DNA from: Bernardetia sp. ABR2-2B | GTDB lineage: Bacteria > Bacteroidota > Bacteroidia > Cytophagales > Bernardetiaceae | Assembly: GCF_037126435.1 (NCBI RefSeq) | Contig: NZ_CP147020.1 | Coordinates: 1,907,293 to 1,971,292 of the forward strand | Reading direction: 5' to 3' | DNA length: 64,000 bases | Shown here: one piece after another, positions 9,787-62,383 of the stretch | How positions within the stretch are numbered: the stretch's first letter is position 1 | Layout of the letters: each line of letters opens with the position of its first letter | The notes under the pieces: generated by a model | What the model was told of the DNA's origin: nothing | Databases searched by the model: none | What the model saw: only the letters and a program-made list of their open reading frames with translations | Program-made: the position numbers and the translations under genes

Positions 9787-12513
9787 TTACTCCTCCATTT
9801 CCCTCAAAATCCCCACCGTTTCGACACTCACTCTACACACTTTTCTCAAAAGCTCAATTAGCCTCTCTTTTTGATTATCAAAAGAATAAGTGGTAAAAAC
9901 TCCTTCTTCAACAGCTTTTTTGACAGTTTTATCTCTCAATTTTCGTTCGCTATGGTGTTCCAAAACCCACTCTAAAGCAGAGCGCACACCCAAACGATAA
10001 TGCCATGCTTCTTCTGGAATATTTTTCAGATAGGTTGTTTCATCAATCCAAACTAAACTGCGAACTCTGTCAGCTTTTAGAATGGCTTTTTTCTTAGATT
10101 TTTTTTCGGATGGATAACTGTCCACCTCTACTTTTTCAGACGAACGGCTGTTCGTCTCTATCTTTTCTTCTCGCTCTAAAGGATAAATAATAGCCTCTTC
10201 ATAATTGAGATGCAGATTTAATAATTTTTCTCCCCACGTTGCCCACTTCCAAAAATCTTCATACATCGGAATTCGTGGTAGTTCGGTATGGAGTATTTTT
10301 TCGTACTTTTTACGGTATTCTGGTGAGTGCAAAACGGCATAGATATAAGCAAAAATGGTATCTTTTGTCAAGGTTCTTGCCTCCACTTGATTGTCTTTCA
10401 TAGACTGCAAACTCTTCTTTAATTCCTTAAAGTTTTTTGCCTTAAATTTTACAGCCTTAGAAGAATAATGATGACGAAACTGCTCTAATGCCCAATCCGT
10501 AATATTTTCTTTAAACTCATTTGTTTCTTCATCAAAAAAGTATTTGGCAAATGTGTGCGTTGCTCTTGCACCGTAACCATTATCGGGAATAAAATTAGTA
10601 GCGTGAACTACCAATGGAACTTGTTTATGAACTGTAACACAAATAGTCGGATTTGGAGTTTGCTCTTTTTGAAGTGGAAAAAAACGAAATTGCTGATAGG
10701 GACGATGTGTAATTACCTCATCTACATATACAAACTGCTTTACAAAAGGGCGATAAGAAGCTTCCCTAACCTTGAAAGAATCATAATTTGTTTCTAAATT
10801 TCTTTTGAGGTTTTGAATAAGCTCTGCGTTCCATTTTATTTTGGCTTCCTTTATTTCTGACTTTACTCCTAAAAAACTTTGTAACGATTCTTTTTGGTCA
10901 GAATTATGCCACTTTTTGCGTTCTTCTTCATAAATCTGACTAAAATAACTTGCTTTTTTTTCTAAATTATCTTTATCAAAATCATACATCCATTCGTCTC
11001 TAGCCGTCAGAAGTGCAGGAGAAGCCCATTTGAAAAGTGCTGTTTCTTCATCTGCAAACTGTGCTGTTTGGGTAGCCTTGTGAGACAGAGGCATAAAACC
11101 TAAAAAATCATCTTCTGGAAGTGCAATCCAATAATTTACAGCTTGACTTACTTTTTTGAACGATAGATTTTGAAATTGTGTGCGTGAAAGAGCTTCTCCA
11201 AAATTCTTTAATGATTTGAAGTTTTTGGTAGGTTTCCAATAATAAACAGGGCATTGAGAACGCAAATGAGCCAAGCGAAAACCATTTGAATAATTATTTT
11301 TATTCTTTCTAACCAAAAAAAGCAATGCAGACTCATTTTCTTTTCCACTAAAAGCCTTTGTATTGTCTTTTTCATTTTTTGATAATTCTGATTTTTCTTC
11401 AATTATATTGGTTTGGCTTTCTTTTTCTACATTTTTATACTCCAAATCCATTACATAAATGCTATCAAATTCGGCTTGTACTCTCTTTCTAAAACCTTCA
11501 TAGGTAGGCGCATGTAAAACAACAGAGGGAAGCCAAACAGCAATAACGCCTTTTTCGGTAAGCCTATCAGTAGCCCAACGTACAAAACGCAAAGGCACAG
11601 GAGAAAAGGCATTTTTTTCATAAATAGGTGTATAAGCTGCCATTACACGGTTATCGATGGCAGCAAAATCAACCTCTTGACTTGTTTTGCTACTTCCTTT
11701 ATCTTTATTATTTTCACTAAAAATAAATTGATTTTGTTGGCTAGTTTTGAAAGAATTTCCGACAATGATATGATAACGAGCATCAATAGAACGGTAAAAC
11801 TCTTGTGCTTCACTTTCCTGTGAGCCAAAAAGTAATGTTTGTTTCGGCACATCCACAAAGTAGGCTGCGTTTGCCCAAAAGATAGGCTGTGAATTATTAG
11901 AGTTGTTATTTAGACTAACTTTCCATAAATAATATGACCAAATAGAAAGTGTACAGGTATAAGACTGACCGACAGAAGGCTGAATATCTTGAAAAAAAGT
12001 ACCTTGATAAAGTGAAGGAGCTTCAAGATTGGCGATAGATTGCTGAATAAAACTTGCAAACTCTAAAGGAGCAACACCTACTTCAAATTTGCGTTGCCAA
12101 TGGACAATAATTTGTTCTTTTTTAGTCTTAGAAAGACTAGTAGAAATTTCTTTTAAAGACAGGCAGTATTTTTTCCATTGTTCTAAAAATCCATTCTTAA
12201 AAAAAACAGAAAAAGCATCTAGTTTTTGAAAGACAGTATCTTTTTTTATAAAAAAGTTATTTTCTAATGGTGTAGAGCTTTCCGTAAAAAATAGACTTTC
12301 TACTAAGGGAAATACAATTTGATGTGATAGAATAGCCGTTTTGAGTAAATTCTCATCAGGCAGACTATGAAACTGAGAAGCAAAAGCACCCAAAGAACGA
12401 TAAGCAGAAGTCTGACGAATTTTATTTTTATCAAATTCGTCTTGCAAAGATGCTATCAAATTATCAATAGCAAAAAAGGTAGGGATTTCTATATTTTTAT
12501 TCTCAAACTTCAT
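9787..12513 (-). CDS. Large (908 aa) protein with type ISP/IIG-like C-terminal block; MTase catalytic motif not evident
   Basis: C-terminal 'IFAYIYAVLHSPEYRKKYEKILHTELPRIPMYEDF' recalls the conserved C-terminus of Type ISP/IIG MTase-REase fusions. 'VIAVWLPSVVLHAPTYEGFRKRV' is a motif-V-like block. Where NPPY/F would sit there is 'IIVGNSF'; no helicase or FxGxG seen. Confidence 0.55.
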   Translation of the reverse strand: MKFENKNIEIPTFFAIDNLIASLQDEFDKNKIRQTSAYRSLGAFASQFHSLPDENLLKTAILSHQIVFPLVESLFFTESSTPLENNFFIKKDTVFQKLDAFSVFFKNGFLEQWKKYCLSLKEISTSLSKTKKEQIIVHWQRKFEVGVAPLEFASFIQQSIANLEAPSLYQGTFFQDIQPSVGQSYTCTLSIWSYYLWKVSLNNNSNNSQPIFWANAAYFVDVPKQTLLFGSQESEAQEFYRSIDARYHIIVGNSFKTSQQNQFIFSENNKDKGSSKTSQEVDFAAIDNRVMAAYTPIYEKNAFSPVPLRFVRWATDRLTEKGVIAVWLPSVVLHAPTYEGFRKRVQAEFDSIYVMDLEYKNVEKESQTNIIEEKSELSKNEKDNTKAFSGKENESALLFLVRKNKNNYSNGFRLAHLRSQCPVYYWKPTKNFKSLKNFGEALSRTQFQNLSFKKVSQAVNYWIALPEDDFLGFMPLSHKATQTAQFADEETALFKWASPALLTARDEWMYDFDKDNLEKKASYFSQIYEEERKKWHNSDQKESLQSFLGVKSEIKEAKIKWNAELIQNLKRNLETNYDSFKVREASYRPFVKQFVYVDEVITHRPYQQFRFFPLQKEQTPNPTICVTVHKQVPLVVHATNFIPDNGYGARATHTFAKYFFDEETNEFKENITDWALEQFRHHYSSKAVKFKAKNFKELKKSLQSMKDNQVEARTLTKDTIFAYIYAVLHSPEYRKKYEKILHTELPRIPMYEDFWKWATWGEKLLNLHLNYEEAIIYPLEREEKIETNSRSSEKVEVDSYPSEKKSKKKAILKADRVRSLVWIDETTYLKNIPEEAWHYRLGVRSALEWVLEHHSERKLRDKTVKKAVEEGVFTTYSFDNQKERLIELLRKVCRVSVETVGILREMEE

Positions 12514-36771: not shown

Positions 36772-36948
36772 AGCTTAGTTTTATTCTTGTTTATTTTTTT
36801 ACAAAAATACGAAATCTATTTGAGGAAACTCAATAAAGCAAAAATTGAGCTACACCGTTGTTGGGCTTAGTTGGCAACTAAGACCTATCAGTTATATAAA
36901 TCTGTAGATTTATGTGGTCAAGTAATTACAAAAATACCTACTTAACTT

Positions 36949-38412
36949 GCAAGTCTAAGACCTTATCCTGTCCCATAAACTTTTCAATTTTGGCTATTGT
37001 TTTGTATTGATTTTATTTATTTACTATTCTTACCTTCATTTTATGTTATATCAACCTTTGGAACATTGGAGCGAACGAGAATTTATGGATTGTGGTGTTG
37101 AAGACTTACGAGAAGCGAAAAGTATTTCGAAGATGGCAGATAAATTATTAGCTACTCCAGAAAACTCTTTCAGTAGTAGCGTAGGTAATAGTCTACGAAA
37201 AGCAGCTTGGCGTATTTTTTCAAAGGAAGAAGTAGATATTAGCTACGGACATTATCGTCAATCTTCTCTTCGTTGTTCCTCTGAATCTATGGTTTTGGTT
37301 CACCAGGATACAACAGATTTGAATTTTGGAGGTCATTTGGCTAGTGAAGGTTTAGGTGACTTAGGAGGTAGTACTGGCAAGCCTATTCTAGGTCTTTGTG
37401 TTCATAGTGCTTTAGTTACTACGGAAGCAGGTATTCCTTTGGGTTTGATTTCACAAAAGATATGGGCGCCTACAGTGGGCAGTAAAGAAAAAAAAGTAAT
37501 TCCTCACCTTCCAATAGAAGAAAAAGAAAGTTATCGTTGGTTAGAGGCTCTACAAGATATTAGCCATCGTTTAAAAGATGTTTCTAAGGTAATTGTAGTT
37601 TCTGATAGAGAGAGTGATTTTTATGAATATATTGATGCTACTCGTGGTAGAAATGTGGAGTTGTTATTTAGAGTGCATCATTTACGTCGTAGAGTATATG
37701 CAAATGGAGAGAAGATAGCTTTAGGGCAAGTTAGTTTTTCATCATTATCAGAGATAGATGTTTTTCTACCTAAGAGCAAAACTAGAGAAGCTAGAAAAGC
37801 TCGTCTTACAATAAGCTGGGGAGATATTATTTGCCCACCTTCGCAAAGGAAAAAGGGATCAGAACATCATTTATCTCTTATTATAGCTAAAGAAATGCAC
37901 CCTCCCAAAGATCAAGAGGCAGTAGAATGGTATCTACTAACCACTCAAAAAATAGTTACCCTTCAACAGGCACTTCTTTGTATAGAACACTACAAAAAAC
38001 GTTGGACTATTGAGCGTTGGCATTATGTGCTTAAACAGGGTTTACGAATAGAAAAACTACAGTTTGATACATTTACTTCACTATCTAATGCTATCAGCTT
38101 ACTCTCCATTGTAGCTTGGCAACTTTATTTGCTCAAAAAACTGGCAGAAGACTATGAAGATATTTCTGCTGATCAAGTATTGACAAAGATACAACTAGAG
38201 GTGTTAGGAAAACAAAGTCAGAAAAAAATACGCTACCTTCAAGAGGCTTTGATACGCATCGCTGTGTTAGGTGGATTTACACCATCTAAAAAACAACCTC
38301 TACCTGGCGAAATGACAATATGGAAAGGGTATAAGATGCTTAGTTTAATAGTTCAAGGCTATAAACTGGCTAACCCAAAAAAATATGGGACAGGATAAGG
38401 TCTTAGACTTGC
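36949..38412 (+). mobile_element. IS4-family insertion sequence (~1.46 kb) with 26-bp perfect terminal inverted repeats
   Basis: Left IR 36949-36974 'gcaagtctaagaccttatcctgtccc' is the exact reverse complement of right IR 38387-38412. The element encloses a single DDE transposase ORF. Confidence 0.75.
37007..38398 (+). CDS. IS4-family DDE transposase
   Basis: 'HQDTTDL', 'VVSDRESDFYE' and 'YKKRWTIERWHYVLKQG' (Y-x2-R-x3-E-x6-K, IS4 signature). Stop codon lies inside the right IR. Confidence 0.8.
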   Translation: MILFIYYSYLHFMLYQPLEHWSEREFMDCGVEDLREAKSISKMADKLLATPENSFSSSVGNSLRKAAWRIFSKEEVDISYGHYRQSSLRCSSESMVLVHQDTTDLNFGGHLASEGLGDLGGSTGKPILGLCVHSALVTTEAGIPLGLISQKIWAPTVGSKEKKVIPHLPIEEKESYRWLEALQDISHRLKDVSKVIVVSDRESDFYEYIDATRGRNVELLFRVHHLRRRVYANGEKIALGQVSFSSLSEIDVFLPKSKTREARKARLTISWGDIICPPSQRKKGSEHHLSLIIAKEMHPPKDQEAVEWYLLTTQKIVTLQQALLCIEHYKKRWTIERWHYVLKQGLRIEKLQFDTFTSLSNAISLLSIVAWQLYLLKKLAEDYEDISADQVLTKIQLEVLGKQSQKKIRYLQEALIRIAVLGGFTPSKKQPLPGEMTIWKGYKMLSLIVQGYKLANPKKYGTG

Positions 38413-38444
38413 TGAACTGATAAATCGTAGTCAATAGACAACGC

Positions 38445-38807
38445 TTAACAGCTACTATTTTTTTGGAACACTACGTGCAACGGGGGGGCTCCATCACTGT
38501 CTGACTTATATTTTTTGAAGCTAGGGTAGTTTTCATAAAATTTATCTTCTAATGTTACCCCTGCTACCCTTTCATAGAACATTAAATCAAGGCAAGCTGT
38601 TTGACCTGTCCACCTATTTATAATAATTGGTTGTACACCTACTAGACGGTTTTTTGGATTTCGTACAGAATCCTCTGTATTATATGAAAATGACCATCCA
38701 AAAGAGTGTTCCTTAAGGGAATGACTTATTATTTTTTGTTTATAATTCCTGCTTAGACCTTCTAAATATTTAGCTTGTATAAGCTTTGCGTCTGTTAATT
38801 CAATCAT
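38445..38807 (-). CDS. Hypothetical small protein (candidate immunity protein)
   Basis: 120 aa, no signal peptide; immediately downstream of a toxin-fragment-like ORF; contains an in-frame C7 (G7 on + strand) tract at 38482-38488. Confidence 0.4.
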   Translation of the reverse strand: MIELTDAKLIQAKYLEGLSRNYKQKIISHSLKEHSFGWSFSYNTEDSVRNPKNRLVGVQPIIINRWTGQTACLDLMFYERVAGVTLEDKFYENYPSFKKYKSDSDGAPPLHVVFQKNSSC

Positions 38808-38818
38808 GTTTTAATCAT

Positions 38819-39136
38819 TTAATTTTTACCTACTTTTGAGTATTCTATTACATAACCAGCATTTTTAATCATTTGATCAAGACTGTCAAAAATATATTCT
38901 ACAGCTTTTCCATCTGGTGTTGTTGCTTGAGGATCTATAAATCTAATCACATCATCCTTGTCTTTGAGAACTAAAAATATATGACCTATTTCACTATCTA
39001 CTTCTTTCCCATTCTTTATTATAGGTCTATATATAGAAACAACACCTACACTGTTTGGTTTCAGTTTATTCATATAGGTTACAACATTGATAAGTGCCTC
39101 AGATCTTTGGAACTTATGTATACCCCATTTTATCAT
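38819..39136 (-). CDS. Hypothetical small protein, possibly an orphan toxin C-terminal-domain fragment
   Basis: 105 aa, no signal and no N-terminal delivery domain; upstream region is replaced by a repeat element. Assignment is speculative. Confidence 0.3.
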   Translation of the reverse strand: MIKWGIHKFQRSEALINVVTYMNKLKPNSVGVVSIYRPIIKNGKEVDSEIGHIFLVLKDKDDVIRFIDPQATTPDGKAVEYIFDSLDQMIKNAGYVIEYSKVGKN

Positions 39137-39212
39137 TCGTTTTTGTAAATCGAATTGTGTTTCTACTAAACCTCCTATTTCTTGTTGGTGTTCTCATTTT
39201 AAAAAGTAAAAG

Positions 39213-39497
39213 AAAGCTGTTGCCCTTTTCTTTAGTTTCGGCTTGCCGTTACGATGACCAACAACAAACATACCTCACAAATCTACTAACTTCCCACAAA
39301 ACCAAAAAACCCAAATCAAAAAAATAGATTTCATTCAAAACCCTCTGCTGTGTCTCGGCTGTCTAAAAATGGCTCTCGCTTGGCTCTGCCGAGTGAGCAA
39401 TATGTATTCGGCTTGTAGCCGTGCATTTCAAATATACTATTATTTTCAATTATTTCCGTTCATTTTTTTTGTTTGACCATTGGAAAACTACGACGAA
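39213..39497 (+). repeat. Extended (~285 bp) copy 1 of palindromic repeat family
   Basis: Near-identical to 40069-40337. Begins with palindromic unit 'gttg..gtctttagtttcggcttgccgttacgatgaccaacaac'. Confidence 0.8.
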
Positions 39498-39514
39498 CAG
39501 AGGTAACACCAAAT

Positions 39515-39595
39515 ACGAAAACCACGGCTAGAAGCCGAATACATAGCTACGCATTCGGATGACCCGAGCGAGGGCTGGGTGAGCTGGTTCTGTAG
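39515..39595 (-). repeat. Inverted partial copy of the repeat's 3' module
   Basis: 'cacggctagaagccgaatacata...' is the reverse complement of 'tatgtattcggcttgtagccgtg' from the extended copies. Confidence 0.6.
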
Positions 39596-39996
39596 TCCAT
39601 AGCTTGAGTTACAAATATATAAAATAAAAAAAACCAAGCTAACAACATAACTACAAAGAAACTCCAATCAGTATAATTATTTTTAACTGTTTCTGGTCTT
39701 CCTACTTTATAAGATATCTCTATACTATCTCCAATCTTAAAAAACTTTTGAGCAACTACATCTACATTTACTTTATGAGTATACTCCTTCCCTTCATACA
39801 GATGTTTTACTTTAAGATGTTGAGTCTTAACATAGCTAGAATCTTCACTGTTAGCTTTACCTTGATATATGACTAAAGCTTTTTCAACTTTTAAGTCAAA
39901 AATTAAAGAATATATGGGTTCAGTATTGATTAAGGCAACACCTATGAGAAGCATTCCAATTGAAGAAAATAATAAAAAAGAAACTTGTTTGTTCAT
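39547..39996 (-). CDS. DUF3592-like membrane protein (N- and C-terminal TM flanking a small domain); ORF tail runs into repeat
   Basis: 'LLFSSIGMLLIGVALI' TM, ~90-aa domain, 'FFVVMLLAWFFLFYIFV' TM. Last ~20 codons ('...SPSPRSGHPNA') lie in repeat sequence and are probably not the true C-terminus. Confidence 0.45.
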   Translation of the reverse strand: MNKQVSFLLFSSIGMLLIGVALINTEPIYSLIFDLKVEKALVIYQGKANSEDSSYVKTQHLKVKHLYEGKEYTHKVNVDVVAQKFFKIGDSIEISYKVGRPETVKNNYTDWSFFVVMLLAWFFLFYIFVTQAMDYRTSSPSPRSGHPNA

Positions 39997-40068
39997 TACT
40001 CTATTGAATCATTTGAATTAAATTGTGCGTTCTTGTTAGTCTTCCAAAAACCCCAAAGCATTATAAAG

Positions 40069-40337
40069 AAGCCGTTGTTGGTCTTTAGTTTCGGCTTGCC
40101 GTTACGATGACCAACAACAAACATACCTCACAAATCTACTAACTTCCCACAAAATCAAAAAAATAGATTTCATTCAAAACCCTCTGCTGTGTCTCGGCTG
40201 TCCAAAAATGGCTCTCGCTTGGCTCTGCCGAGTGAGCAATATGTATTCGGCTTGTAGCCGTGCATTTCAAATATACTATTATTTTTAATTATTTCCGTTC
40301 ATTTTTTTTATTTGACCATTGGAAAACTACGACGAAC
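40069..40337 (+). repeat. Extended (~270 bp) copy 2 of palindromic repeat family
   Basis: Direct repeat of 39213-39497, differing by a 13-bp indel and a few substitutions. Confidence 0.8.
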
Positions 40338-40740
40338 GGAGAAATTTTAAAAAAAGCAGTTAGCTACATTAATTATATTTTTTGCAATAAAAACTTGTTT
40401 TATTATCAAAAACTCAAAATTGCACCTTTTATCAATGAAAATTTGATAAACAACGTATTAATTTTAGAAAAGTAATAATTTTTAAAAAAACTAACATTGT
40501 AAATTATTTGTGAATTTTTTGTTAAAAATTTGGAAATGAAAAATTAACTTCCTTAATTTGTTTAATAGTTAAACAAGATAACTATTTTTTATACTTAGAG
40601 AAAAGAACAATAATGAATAATAAATTACACTTTTTAAATAAAAAATTGCAATTAATCATCAATACAGCTAAAAATAGAATTTAGCTTTTTATTTTTCTAA
40701 ATAGTATGCAAACATACTATAAAGTTAATTCACTTTATTA

Positions 40741-45982: not shown

Positions 45983-46090
45983 TGTGCTTTAGTGCAAGAT
46001 TTCATCTTGTACTTACTCTTTCATCAACATAACGATGACAAGATGATAGATACAAGGAGAAGCTTATGATATGATATAATAAATTTCTAC

Positions 46091-46155
46091 GCCATTGGTG
46101 GTCTTTATTTTCGGTTTGCTGTTATGATGACCAGTAACAAACAGATATAAGTGTA
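46091..46155 (+). repeat. Short diverged copy 3 of palindromic repeat unit
   Basis: 'gccattggtggtctttattttcggtttgctgttatgatgaccagtaacaaacagatataagtg' aligns to the unit in copies 1/2. Confidence 0.55.
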
Positions 46156-60064: not shown

Positions 60065-60104
60065 TTTATATATCTCAACATGAGTGAAATTCTTCAAATT
60101 CAAA

Positions 60105-60165
60105 GCTGTTGCCTTTGTCTTTACTTTCGGCTTGCCGTTACGATGATCAACAACAGAAATACGCA
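60105..60165 (+). repeat. Short copy 4 of palindromic repeat unit
   Basis: 'gttgcctttgtctttactttcggcttgccgttacgatgatcaacaacag'. Confidence 0.6.
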
Positions 60166-60201
60166 TAAAGCTAAGGTAAAATAGTTGTTTTTTCACTTTC
60201 A

Positions 60202-60849
60202 ATGAGCAATGCTTTTAGTGATAAGTTAGTAGATTTGTGGAAGTCTTTTTGTTGGTCATCACAACGGCAAGCCGAAGTTAAAGACCAACAAAGGCGAGTA
60301 TTACATTTATATAAACGTTGTGTCCAATTAGAAAAAATGAAAAACGAACCAGAAATATTCAAATATCAAAAAGGAAAGAAAATCGGAGAAATCTTGACAA
60401 TGGTTTCGATTGTCACTTTGATAGTATTCATTCTGGATTCAAATGGAAGTGAAATAACCAAAATACTTCTAACAATTCTGATGACTGTTTTTTTGATTTT
60501 TATGATAAGTTATACCTATTTACTAAATGAAAATTTCCAGATTGACTCAGAAGCATTAACAATTAAGAAGAAAATAGGTAATTCCAATAAAATCCCATTT
60601 AAAAATATTCGCAGAGTTACGATACGAGAGAAAGAAAATTCAGTAGAAACAAATCACTTTGCGATGACAGTATTTGAAAGAAATAAAAATACGAGGATAA
60701 TAGTATCAGATTTAGACAACCGATTCAAGATGATTAATCTATTCGAACAAAAAGGAAGGGATTTTGGATTCAACGTTATCCACCAGAACATAAATGGAAA
60801 AATAATAAGAGAAATAAAAAAGAGGAAAACTGGACACAACAAAGGCTAA
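60202..60849 (+). CDS. Membrane protein with two TM helices and bacterial PH-like domain, hypothetical
   Basis: TMs 'ILTMVSIVTLIVFIL' and 'ILLTILMTVFLIFMISYTYLL'. Start may be the internal Met, since the 5' end overlaps repeat copy 4. Confidence 0.4.
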   Translation: MSNAFSDKLVDLWKSFCWSSQRQAEVKDQQRRVLHLYKRCVQLEKMKNEPEIFKYQKGKKIGEILTMVSIVTLIVFILDSNGSEITKILLTILMTVFLIFMISYTYLLNENFQIDSEALTIKKKIGNSNKIPFKNIRRVTIREKENSVETNHFAMTVFERNKNTRIIVSDLDNRFKMINLFEQKGRDFGFNVIHQNINGKIIREIKKRKTGHNKG

Positions 60850-60859
60850 AACGTTCATA

Positions 60860-61100
60860 GCTAGCAAAAGCTGGCTACGCCGTTTAGCCGGACCGTTGCT
60901 ATGTCATAACTTCGCTTCGCTCCGTTATGACATAGCAACGTGCGTAGGCTAATCGCCTGTGTGGTGTCGCTCCACTTCGTTACGCCACACAACCCAGGCT
61001 ATGCGATAATTTTTTATCTTTAAGCCCCATCTGGCGCAAGGTTCTCCTTGTGTCTATTATTTTGTCAGCATATGCTGACGAAAAAGCAAGTACAAGATAG
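60860..61100. ncRNA. GC-rich block with multiple perfect hairpins; candidate structured RNA or recombination site
   Basis: 17-bp perfect stem 'cgttgctatgtcataac...gttatgacatagcaacg'; second hairpin 'gcctgtgtgg...ccacacaacccaggc' (both loops contain 'tcgctcc'); 16-bp palindrome 'gtcagcatatgctgac'. GC content far above surroundings. Confidence 0.2.
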
Positions 61101-61170
61101 AATCTTGCACTAGAGTATCAATATTTCTGCGTTCTCGTTGGTCTTCAAAAAGTCAAAAGCATTAATAAAA

Positions 61171-61225
61171 AGCCGTTGCCTTTGTCTTTAGTTTCGGTTT
61201 GCCGTTACGATGACCAACAATAGAA
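61171..61225 (+). repeat. Short copy 5 of palindromic repeat unit
   Basis: 'gccgttgcctttgtctttagtttcggtttgccgttacgatgaccaacaatag'. Confidence 0.6.
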
Positions 61226-61343: not shown

Positions 61344-62198
61344 ATGCTAGAAAATTTATCGGAACGAAAAGAAACTTGGAAAACAATCTTTCTATTTCTT
61401 GCAATCGTTATTCTTCTTACTTCACCTTTTCATTATGCCATAGTTAATTTGTATCCATCACGAATATATGTTGGAGCTATAATGTGGTGTCCTGCAATTG
61501 CCGCATTTATTACCTTAAAAATAAAAGGTCGTAAGGTTTCATCTCTAAATTGGAATTGGGGAAATTGGAAATATATTCGCCTTTCTTATTTTATTCCTGC
61601 TTTATATGGCTTAATCACTTATATACTCATTTGGTTTTTTGGTTTTGGAAGTTTAACAAATGAAGAAGCAATTACAGATTGGGGAAAAGAACTTGGTTTG
61701 ATTGGAATAGGAACTTTAAATCCTACATCAATTACAATCATAGCTATTATCTTATTAGGAACTATTGAAGTCATAAGAGCAGCAGCAACAACTTTAGGGG
61801 AAGAAATTGGATGGAGAGGTTTTTTCATTTATGAATTAAGAAAAGTTCTTTCTTTTACTGGTGTTTCCATTTTTAGTGGAATTATTTGGGCTGCTTGGCA
61901 TTGGCCACTACTTGTTTACTATAGTAATAATATGCTATTAGAATTTATAACATTCTTCATCGTAATCATTTCTATGTCCTTCATTATGACCTACTACGCT
62001 TTTAAATCTAAAAGCCTATGGCCAGCAGTAATTTTTCACGCAGTAAGCAATGTATATATTCAAAAAATATTACCTGAATTAACCATTAAAAATGAAGGAA
62101 TGGAACATTGGCTTGGTGAGAACGGAATTATGTTTGCAATCGTGACTTGCATTTTTGGAATTTACTTTTGGAGAAAAGCAATTAAAGAAAAATTGTAA
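61344..62198 (+). CDS. CPBP-family intramembrane metalloprotease (CAAX protease / Abi-like)
   Basis: 'GEEIGWRGF' (EExxxR), 'AAWHWP' (FxxxH-like) and 'FHAVSN' motifs in TM helices. Confidence 0.8.
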   Translation: MLENLSERKETWKTIFLFLAIVILLTSPFHYAIVNLYPSRIYVGAIMWCPAIAAFITLKIKGRKVSSLNWNWGNWKYIRLSYFIPALYGLITYILIWFFGFGSLTNEEAITDWGKELGLIGIGTLNPTSITIIAIILLGTIEVIRAAATTLGEEIGWRGFFIYELRKVLSFTGVSIFSGIIWAAWHWPLLVYYSNNMLLEFITFFIVIISMSFIMTYYAFKSKSLWPAVIFHAVSNVYIQKILPELTIKNEGMEHWLGENGIMFAIVTCIFGIYFWRKAIKEKL

Positions 62199-62205
62199 AT
62201 AAAAA

Positions 62206-62290
62206 ACCCTGCTCTGCCTCGCAAGAATAAAATAGCTCTTGCTCGTTTTTAACGAGTGAGTTATATGTATTCGGCATTTTGCCATGATTT
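62206..62290 (+). repeat. Partial copy of the 3' module of the extended repeat
   Basis: 'cgagtgagttatatgtattcggcattttgccatgattttt' vs 'cgagtgagcaatatgtattcggcttgtagccgtgcatttc' in copies 1/2. Confidence 0.45.
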
Positions 62291-62383
62291 TTGTATTCAA
62301 AATTGAGAGAAAAAAGATTATTAAGTTTCGCTGTCGTTGATATTGCTACTCTAAAATATCACTAAGGGTAGTGATAAGCTCAC

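Follow-up and report, generated by a model that had tools for sequence, protein, structure and literature searches.

Repetitive extragenic palindromic (REP) sequences and their REP-associated tyrosine transposases (RAYTs, or TnpA-REP) have been described in E. coli and Pseudomonas (Bertels & Rainey 2011, PMC3116915; structure 4ER8), and E. coli also has bacterial interspersed mosaic elements (BIMEs; PMC6006769). One branch of the enzymes, TnpA-REP subclass 2.6 or RAYT group 5, is specific to Bacteroidetes, with a length of ~179 aa and NH[LIV]H, WQ, YIH[QN]NP and SS motifs (Quentin et al. 2018, PMC6006769; Bertels et al. 2017, PMC5581495). [quoted passage not shown] Here we analyzed a 64,000-nt stretch of Bernardetia sp. 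ABR2-2B (assembly GCF_037126435.1, contig NZ_CP147020.1, positions 1,907,293 to 1,971,292 of the forward strand; hereafter the window), in which a hairpin-forming unit of ~50 nt recurs. The unit is very probably a REP, with a RAYT, a single-domain HUH/Y1 transposase encoded elsewhere in the ABR2-2B genome, as its cognate enzyme.

The Bernardetia system resembles subclass 2.6 in its enzyme of ~180 aa with the same motifs and a long HUH-Y spacing, in flanking structures without GT[AG]G and in moderate copy numbers. Whereas the published descriptions say merely "atypical", the structure found here is a three-tier hairpin of 45-50 nt with compensatory changes, tails and RAYT-deleted doublets. The REP/REPIN-RAYT systems of E. 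coli and Pseudomonas are alike in having imperfect palindromes outside genes, inverted doublets folding into a single hairpin, a RAYT gene between inverted REPs, and REP and RAYT that vary together between species, and they provide the best fold match in the PDB. In contrast to those systems, the Bernardetia hairpin is longer, lacks the GTAG tag and occurs in far fewer copies, the RAYT is present more than once in at least one species, and the doublet spacers retain RAYT-flank sequence and the last RAYT codons. IS200/IS605 insertion sequences (ISs) encode a Y1 HUH transposase, carry subterminal hairpins, cause no target duplication and give rise to non-autonomous derivatives by internal deletion. 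The same four traits are found here, with hairpins near the ends, but these hairpins are inverted relative to each other, the protein is scored as a RAYT rather than as IS200 TnpA and no tnpB partner was seen. As in BIMEs, REPs are mixed with short conserved motifs (here REP, tails, M2, an "outer motif", M3, M4 and a GC-rich block, all described below), but the accessory motifs are unrelated in sequence to those of BIMEs.

A hairpin family dispersed among Cytophagales

A degenerate 24-mer of the unit was scanned for exact matches in a collection of one genome per species (185,579 species). It was found at 31 loci in 6 genomes, all Cytophagales: Bernardetia sp. OM2101, a Bernardetia metagenome-assembled genome (MAG), a "Flexibacter" MAG and three uncultured Cytophagales MAGs. 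The copies are thus not restricted to the window. None of the viral contigs scanned with the pattern matched. A profile was then applied to the fetched loci (numbered L) and the window and recovered copies beyond the exact pattern, ~60 strong ones in all. By a crude open reading frame (ORF) call, none of these lies inside a convincing gene, the few overlaps being with doubtful short ORFs, and their orientation relative to adjacent genes is mixed. The exact pattern has 4 to ~17 hits per genome, and the profile finds 6 copies in the 64-kb window. A first-pass annotation, made from the letters of the window, had proposed a non-autonomous REP-like palindromic family; members far outside the window and a RAYT flanked by the same hairpins in related genomes bear this out.

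The probable cognate transposase

Two of these hairpins enclose a 182-aa ORF in both L022 and L024. It matches the NCBIfam family REP-associated tyrosine transposase (REP_Tyr_transpos, E 1.2e-20) and reaches Pfam Y1_Tnp right at the cut-off of that family. The protein carries the motifs PNHIHLL and DYIHNNP, and its relatives number more than 2,400, mostly from Cytophagales, some of them under the JGI name RayT. ABR2-2B encodes one such RAYT elsewhere in its genome (WP_338763585.1, P0003; 182 aa), with NHIH at 59-62, YIHNNP at 136-141 and YSS at 157-159. Its W115 is followed by K, at the position where most relatives have the Q of the WQ motif, and the HUH-Y spacing is long (76 aa).

A phmmer search of the PDB with the RAYT gave no hit. 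The best PDB hit of a profile of 25 RAYT relatives was E. coli TnpA-REP, 4ER8 (E 0.0027). An AlphaFold model of P0003 (predicted local distance difference test score 92.4) is also closest to 4ER8_A (E 2.5e-7, TM-score 0.61/0.67, root-mean-square deviation 3.0 Å), with the IS200, IS608 and ISDra2 transposases ranking behind. Judged by motifs, length and the absence of the tag, the enzyme would fit TnpA-REP subclass 2.6 / RAYT group 5.

In B. litoralis DSM 6794 (L033, CP003345), the RAYT gene at 10001-10549 has one hairpin 65 nt downstream and the other ~1 kb upstream. About 0.9 kb between the left REP and the RAYT start (L033 9080-9900) reads as a minus-strand transposase remnant, and another IS has apparently inserted into this RAYT unit. 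The hairpin left of the RAYT has its asymmetric interior flipped in L024 (4836-4889) relative to L022 (5558-5611) and L033, with the tail direction unchanged, which suggests an inversion between the two stem arms. A RAYT of 59% identity in Bernardetia sp. MNP-M8 has another hairpin at its flanks, GTTGTCGGTGT...ACACCGACAA, which is similar in outer-stem and tail sequence. RAYT and REP thus vary together between lineages, as expected of REP-RAYT systems.

Doublets and single hairpins descend from RAYT ends

Fourteen convergent doublets of 183-205 bp (~190 bp) were identified, among them window 60104-60298. The doublet in L012 consists of the right end of the B. litoralis RAYT unit (L033 10708-10539, with ~10 nt of the ORF kept) joined directly to the left end (L033 8997-8922). 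Because it aligns in this way, we interpret the doublets as RAYT-deleted units.

Single hairpins can be assigned by their tails. Among 61 hairpins, 23 have a right-end ("a") tail, 17 a left-end ("b") tail and 21 neither. Window copies 1 and 2 carry the a-tail. The segment 40162-40065, comprising REP copy 2 and its tail, is 98% identical to the 3′ flank and right end of the B. litoralis RAYT, and 39339-39182 is 88% identical to the 3′ end and flank of the same gene (L033 10541-10698). The match reaches TTTGAATGA, a relic of the last RAYT codons. In copy 1, the a-tail spans 39266-39339 (+ strand), is a relic of the RAYT 3′ flank and ends in these codons (TTTGAATGA on the - strand); it includes CAAATCTA, the reverse complement of TAGATTTG. 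As a second finding that would speak against a mobile family, the first-pass annotation had named that the copies are 3′ ends of a duplicated gene. This turns out half true in an unforeseen sense, as copies 1 and 2 carry the RAYT 3′ flank and its last three codons.

In MAG CAVXHP01 (L021 5900-7500), the same REP doublet occurs three times with identical flanks, at spacings of 836 and 358 bp, and small ORFs of 73-156 aa are interleaved. This arrangement is apparently a local tandem amplification of a doublet-plus-gene unit.

The folded strand is conserved

In 51 aligned copies the unit reads GCC-GTTGTTGGTC-TTTA-GT-TT-CGG(CTTG)CCG-TT-AC-GAT-GACCAACAAC. It forms three stems, an outer one of 10 bp, a middle one of 2 bp and an inner one of 3 bp, and 90% of the sequence-by-pair cells are paired. 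Compensatory switches occur at 4 pairs: the middle stem changes from GT..AC to AC..GT in 10-11 sequences, the outermost pair from G-C to T-A in 7 and the stem-closing pair from C-G to G-C in 2. The covariation score was reached by none of 500 shuffles. The stem is therefore kept through compensatory changes, a pattern that shows selection acting on the folded single strand, be it DNA or RNA. No GT[AG]G (or CGTC) 5′ tag is present at the foot of the hairpin, the flanks being GCC (5′) and A(A/G)A (3′). Rfam 15 gave no match at the gathering score over the whole window, and chance-level hits alone at E ≤10 over 39100-40500.

REPs are common targets of IS110/IS1111 elements. A 1.3-kb IS110-family element with a 334-aa DEDD transposase was observed in MAG CAVRCG01 (L003 4872-6170; also L007, L020 and L024). 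Its insertion point is identical in 4 separate REP copies of this MAG, within the outer arm at GACCAAC|...|CAACGG, and the element appears to target the REP hairpin specifically, one more trait in which the hairpin resembles REPs.

REP copies in the window

The 37-nt core TCTTTAGTTTCGGCTTGCCGTTACGATGACCAACAAC is found without mismatch at 39229 and 40082 and, at 2 mismatches each, at 60118 and 61185; no match occurred in 100 shuffles. A looser nhmmer profile combined with repeat finding added a further diverged copy at 46089-46141 and an inverted one at 60246-60296. The ~50-nt unit is thus present in 6 copies, where the first-pass annotation had counted five: those five are real, and the inverted copy at 60245-60298 had been overlooked.

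Copy 1 (39213-39268, +) has an intact core and inner arm; its outer arm is the variant GCTGTTGCCCTTTTC and the full stem is not formed. The outer arms of copies 1, 4 and 5 are of the variant type GTTGCCTTTGTC. Copy 2 (40068-40121, +) is an intact three-tier hairpin. Copy 3 (46088-46141, +) is degenerate and lies between convergent genes, and copy 5 (61171-61224, +) has the variant outer arm. Copies 4 (60104-60157, +) and 6 (60245-60298, -) are the left and right halves of the REPIN-like doublet at 60104-60298 (+), separated by an 88-nt spacer. An ORF called at 60202 begins within copy 6, and therefore the ATG at 60337 is the likelier start.

As for the long hairpin with a nested stem that had been predicted for the unit, copy 2 folds fully as single-stranded DNA (-11.4 kcal/mol, z -3.6) and is the sole full stem among the window copies folded, but the folding energies of copies 1, 3 and 5 did not beat shuffles; for copy 1, the DNA fold was no better than that of shuffled sequence. 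The arms of copy 6 match each other by sequence. The doublet (60100-60305) folds as single-stranded DNA into one long hairpin (-39.4 kcal/mol, z -6.6).

The long copies are mosaics of two families

Around copies 1 and 2 the similarity extends over 39229-39502 (274 nt) and 40082-40341 (260 nt), with 4 mismatches and one 14-nt indel (98.5% identity). The near-identity over ~275 bp seen earlier is thus real. Its treatment as one unit is not, as each stretch consists of a RAYT right-end relic and a member of an independent family, M2, which begins directly after the last-codon relic TTTGAATGA. In long copy 1, the right part at 39331-39502 (+) holds M2 at 39331-39444 (nhmmer E 5e-33) and a 3′ extension that is 96.7% identical to 40278-40337. 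In long copy 2, the a-tail, M2 (40170-40283) and extension occupy 40122-40341 (+) and end at the edge of the strain-specific block described below. An inverted, diverged M2 lies at 39502-39606 (-; nhmmer E 6.5e-24) and contains a terminator-like hairpin at 39537-39525, and a solo M2 at 62197-62305 (+; nhmmer E 7e-27) begins at the stop codon of an Rce1-like gene. These two correspond to the partial copies that had been noticed at 39515-39595 and 62206-62290.

M2 has 29 copies in the fetched loci, solo or clustered, often without a hairpin nearby. Its 10-bp stem covaries at 4 pairs and includes a G-T wobble pair that is invariant, as is a 12-mer, TATGTATTCGGC; a 5-bp stem is also present, in which A-T changes to T-A in 9 of 25 sequences. 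Gene context in the fetched loci showed no consistent orientation and no gene linked to M2. Our best guess, held with low confidence, is that M2 would be a second REP-like mosaic component able to serve as a terminator; it could also be an undescribed strand-specific structured element. Some M2 copies break off at or near TATGTATT and run on into REP sequence or the outer motif (L016 6401-6454; L015 6237-6320; L033 10690-10772), which points to recurrent recombination at the TTCGGC microhomology common to M2 and the REP core.

About one copy in three has the outer motif, GGGAACACCAACAAGAACGCAG, at a distance of 20-30 nt outside the REP outer arm. In the window it occurs as GGAAGACTAACAAGAACGCACA at 40020-40045 (-), between REP copy 2 and the start of a 149-aa ORF, and further sites are at 39183-39199, 61125-61145 and L037 3950-4000. 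A role as the start of a small ORF was rejected: the ORFs are 5-34 codons long, and variants differ in frame despite their conserved DNA.

A repeat-derived C-terminus in a strain-specific block

The long copies flank a 149-aa ORF with two transmembrane segments (WAF17_08135, 39547-39996, -). The protein, like that of the 553-aa gene mentioned below, is 100% identical to its ABR2-2B database entry. Its sole homolog in the protein collection, of 137 aa, can be aligned as far as residue 133 and stops 3 residues after that, and the DNA homology to the L037 gene stops at 39609. Because both alignments stop there, we interpret the last ~16 residues as translated repeat, as the first-pass annotation had suggested; the inverted M2 at 39502-39606 supplies these codons and the stop. 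The functional labels given at that stage fared less well. Pfam recovered neither "DUF3592-like" for this protein (best hit DUF4131, E 0.003) nor "PH-domain" for the 170-aa ORF near copies 4 and 5, which gave an EbsA-like match (E 2e-4) below cut-off.

The 149-aa ORF and both mosaics belong to a block at 36821-40346, between rlmN and a 553-aa gene, that also contains an IS4-like IS and Imm35-like and glutamine-deamidase-fragment ORFs. In Bernardetia sp. OM2101 (L034) and MAG CAVRCG01 (L035), rlmN adjoins the ortholog of the 553-aa gene and the 3.5-kb block is absent. Their alignment to the window runs over 35683-36820/36827 and resumes at 40345/40347, the right edge of long copy 2; in OM2101 only ~122 bp lie between the two alignment points. 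Neither genome has a hairpin or M2 in this interval. No other segment proved strain-specific, and copy 2 stands at the border of this one; the interval from rlmN to the 553-aa gene is, by this comparison, an insertion-prone intergenic site.

Since the two mosaics are near-identical, they point to a recent event, either duplication or recombination. It was not a simple tandem duplication, as the sequence after copy 2 does not repeat that after copy 1.

Mechanistic model

We propose that the autonomous unit would be a RAYT gene between two inverted hairpins. Deletion of the gene would give ~190-bp doublets (REPINs), such as the one at window 60104-60298, and further decay would leave lone hairpins that retain one tail, left or right. 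E. coli TnpA-REP and IS200/IS605 serve here as the analogy: the RAYT would bind the folded hairpin in single-stranded DNA at the replication fork, then cut and rejoin beside it, allowing spread or rearrangement without target duplications; on the same analogy, we infer transposition of REPs and REPINs. Each ~275-bp copy in the window would be a RAYT right-end relic (hairpin, 3′ flank and last codons) abutting M2, and not a transposition unit. This mosaic would have been duplicated recently to both sides of a small membrane-protein gene in an insertion-prone region. Judging from the T-run after right-end hairpins, the right REP may also terminate RAYT transcription, and solo copies may carry this terminator property with them.

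This is no new kind of system; it is a better-resolved case of RAYT subclass 2.6, selfish DNA of a familiar type in a bacterial group that has received little study. It gives sequence and structure to the "atypical" REPs of the Bacteroidetes subclass, namely a three-tier hairpin, two tails and RAYT-deleted doublets. An annotated protein C-terminus in ABR2-2B is shown to be repeat-derived, and an apparent 275-bp unit to be a two-family mosaic. Outside Proteobacteria, the system also provides a REP/RAYT pair that is amenable to study, together with an IS110-family element at the same hairpin.

Several observations weigh against the REP-RAYT interpretation. The window itself has no RAYT gene, and the NCBIfam score of the RAYT, 73.9 bits, is slightly below the cut-off of 80. 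Stems are degraded in 4 of the 6 window copies. Copy number looks like tens per genome and not hundreds, the complete OM2101 genome having 4 exact-pattern hits. A filled/empty pair of orthologous REP sites was sought among the fetched loci and no clean one was found: L006 and L007 have an orthologous REP in common, and in L008 and L027 the divergence begins before the REP. The RAYT offers no explanation for M2 or the outer motif. Finally, B. litoralis DSM 6794 has at least two near-identical 182-aa RAYTs and a 191-aa variant, all in one 90% cluster.

Alternative explanations

The last of these points bears on a rival explanation in which the hairpins are ends of a still-active IS200-like IS with MITE-like (miniature inverted-repeat transposable element) derivatives of the type known as palindrome-associated transposable elements (PATEs), and not a REP population with a "domesticated" RAYT. 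A single RAYT per genome is found neither in B. litoralis DSM 6794 nor in MAG CAVRCG01, which has one full copy and one fragment, and the multiple copies in B. litoralis are more IS-like than "domesticated". The last RAYT codons persist in the doublets, as IS ends do in MITEs, and copy numbers are modest. However, NCBIfam, the PDB profile and the predicted fold all group the protein with RAYTs and not with IS200 TnpA. The hairpins are inverted around the gene, as in REPtrons; IS608-type ends are not inverted around the gene. Moreover, at least one REP is kept at an orthologous site in two species at 87% identity, which suggests long persistence. We consider the active-IS explanation unlikely, and it differs from the preferred one in degree, not in mechanism: the REP-RAYT system may be nearer to an active IS than to a domesticated system.

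One could also suppose that the REP hairpins act mainly as RNA, as portable intrinsic terminators, stabilisers of mRNA 3′ ends or tiny RNAs, with a Bacteroidetes -7 box (TAGATTTG) in the a-tail driving transcription into the hairpin. Along the RAYT sense strand, the hairpin is followed by GGC-T(5-8) in many right-end copies. In 17 of 61 tails, TAnnTTTG is present as its reverse complement, CAAAnnTA, with a fixed offset of 10-13 nt. The second hairpin of M2 with its T-rich tail is terminator-like, four M2 copies start at most 28 nt from a stop codon, and the compensatory changes suit RNA as well as single-stranded DNA. A sigma-70 promoter scan was made and is uninformative in Bacteroidota. On the other hand, the copies have no uniform orientation relative to adjacent genes, many are situated between divergent genes, where there is no upstream gene to be terminated, the T-runs in the window are weak and most stems there are broken, and Rfam has no match. 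The link to the RAYT and the deletion-derivative doublets, in addition, need an origin at the DNA level. As the main explanation, an RNA-level function is quite unlikely; as a secondary, co-opted role it is possible.

Doubtful, and slightly more so, is the idea that the REP right end, the T-run and the outer motif (GGGAACACCAACAAGAACGCAG) form a portable terminator/leader module travelling with small genes, that REP-bounded units are mobile cassettes moved by the RAYT or by REP-REP recombination, and/or that M2 is an undescribed element. REP copy 2 stands at the edge of the strain-specific block, and the homolog of the 149-aa gene in L037, at an unrelated locus with no detectable REP, has, like the window gene, a similar stretch of arm, T-run and outer motif upstream.

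That stretch would also suit an integron-like (attC-like) or other site-specific cassette system capturing small genes, as would the bracketing of a small gene by the long copies and the position of copy 2 at the edge of the strain-specific 3.5-kb block. We hold such a system to be very improbable. The arms have the polarity GTTGTTGG...CCAACAAC, opposite to attC, which reads RYYYAAC...GTTRRRY. No integrase or recombinase was found among the ~27 larger ORFs tested (33.8-64 kb), and on these two grounds the attC reading was rejected. Copies 3 to 5 are spread over 14 kb of transporter, helicase and metabolic genes (encoding a pseudouridine synthase, a class-V aminotransferase, CLC and MgtE transporters and a UvrD-like helicase), and other genomes contain no ordered hairpin arrays. 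The earlier proposal that the repeats delimit gene cassettes has the block edge at copy 2 in its favour, but copies 3-5 lie among housekeeping genes with no recombinase among the ORFs tested; support for such a role is weak at best.

A MITE of DDE-transposon origin whose terminal inverted repeats are the hairpins would account for ~190-bp doublets with inverted ends but is hardly credible: the 14 doublets show no consistent target-site duplications at their ends (0-1 nt in 13 of them), so the MITE-like label does not hold in the DDE sense, and the only gene found between such ends encodes a Y1/HUH enzyme and not a DDE transposase. A CRISPR-repeat-like reading of the GTTG...CAAC ends was rejected on the irregular spacings of 0.16-14 kb.

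Other repeats and genes near the REP copies

Apart from the elements above, the strain-specific block includes the IS4-like IS at 36949-38412, with a 463-aa DDE_Tnp_1 ORF (37007-38398) and 36-nt inverted repeats that are 92% complementary. Next to it, 38445-39136 (-) holds a 120-aa Imm35-like ORF and a 105-aa ORF that matches only the C-terminal part of a glutamine-deamidase toxin, both below Pfam cut-offs; from these partial matches, the segment looks like an orphan polymorphic-toxin/immunity remnant. An Imm35 gene is located near the RAYT in B. litoralis too (L033 8256-8567).

Three further repeats were observed. M3, at window 36840-36940, is a hairpin CTTAGTTGGCAACTAAG followed by ACCTATCAG, with 88-91% identity to L027, L006 and L009 from other Cytophagales. 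M4 is a 45-nt hairpin-bearing repeat at 45987-46031 and 61071-61115, in opposite orientations and ~60 nt from REP copies 3 and 5; it also occurs in Bernardetia sp. OM2101 (L005) and is terminator-like on the - strand at 61111-61089. A GC-rich block with nested hairpins, at 60845-61060 in a genome of 32% GC, includes 132 nt that are 93% identical to OM2101 L016 6690-6821. The OM2101 counterpart likewise lies near a REP, and the block is probably another dispersed element.

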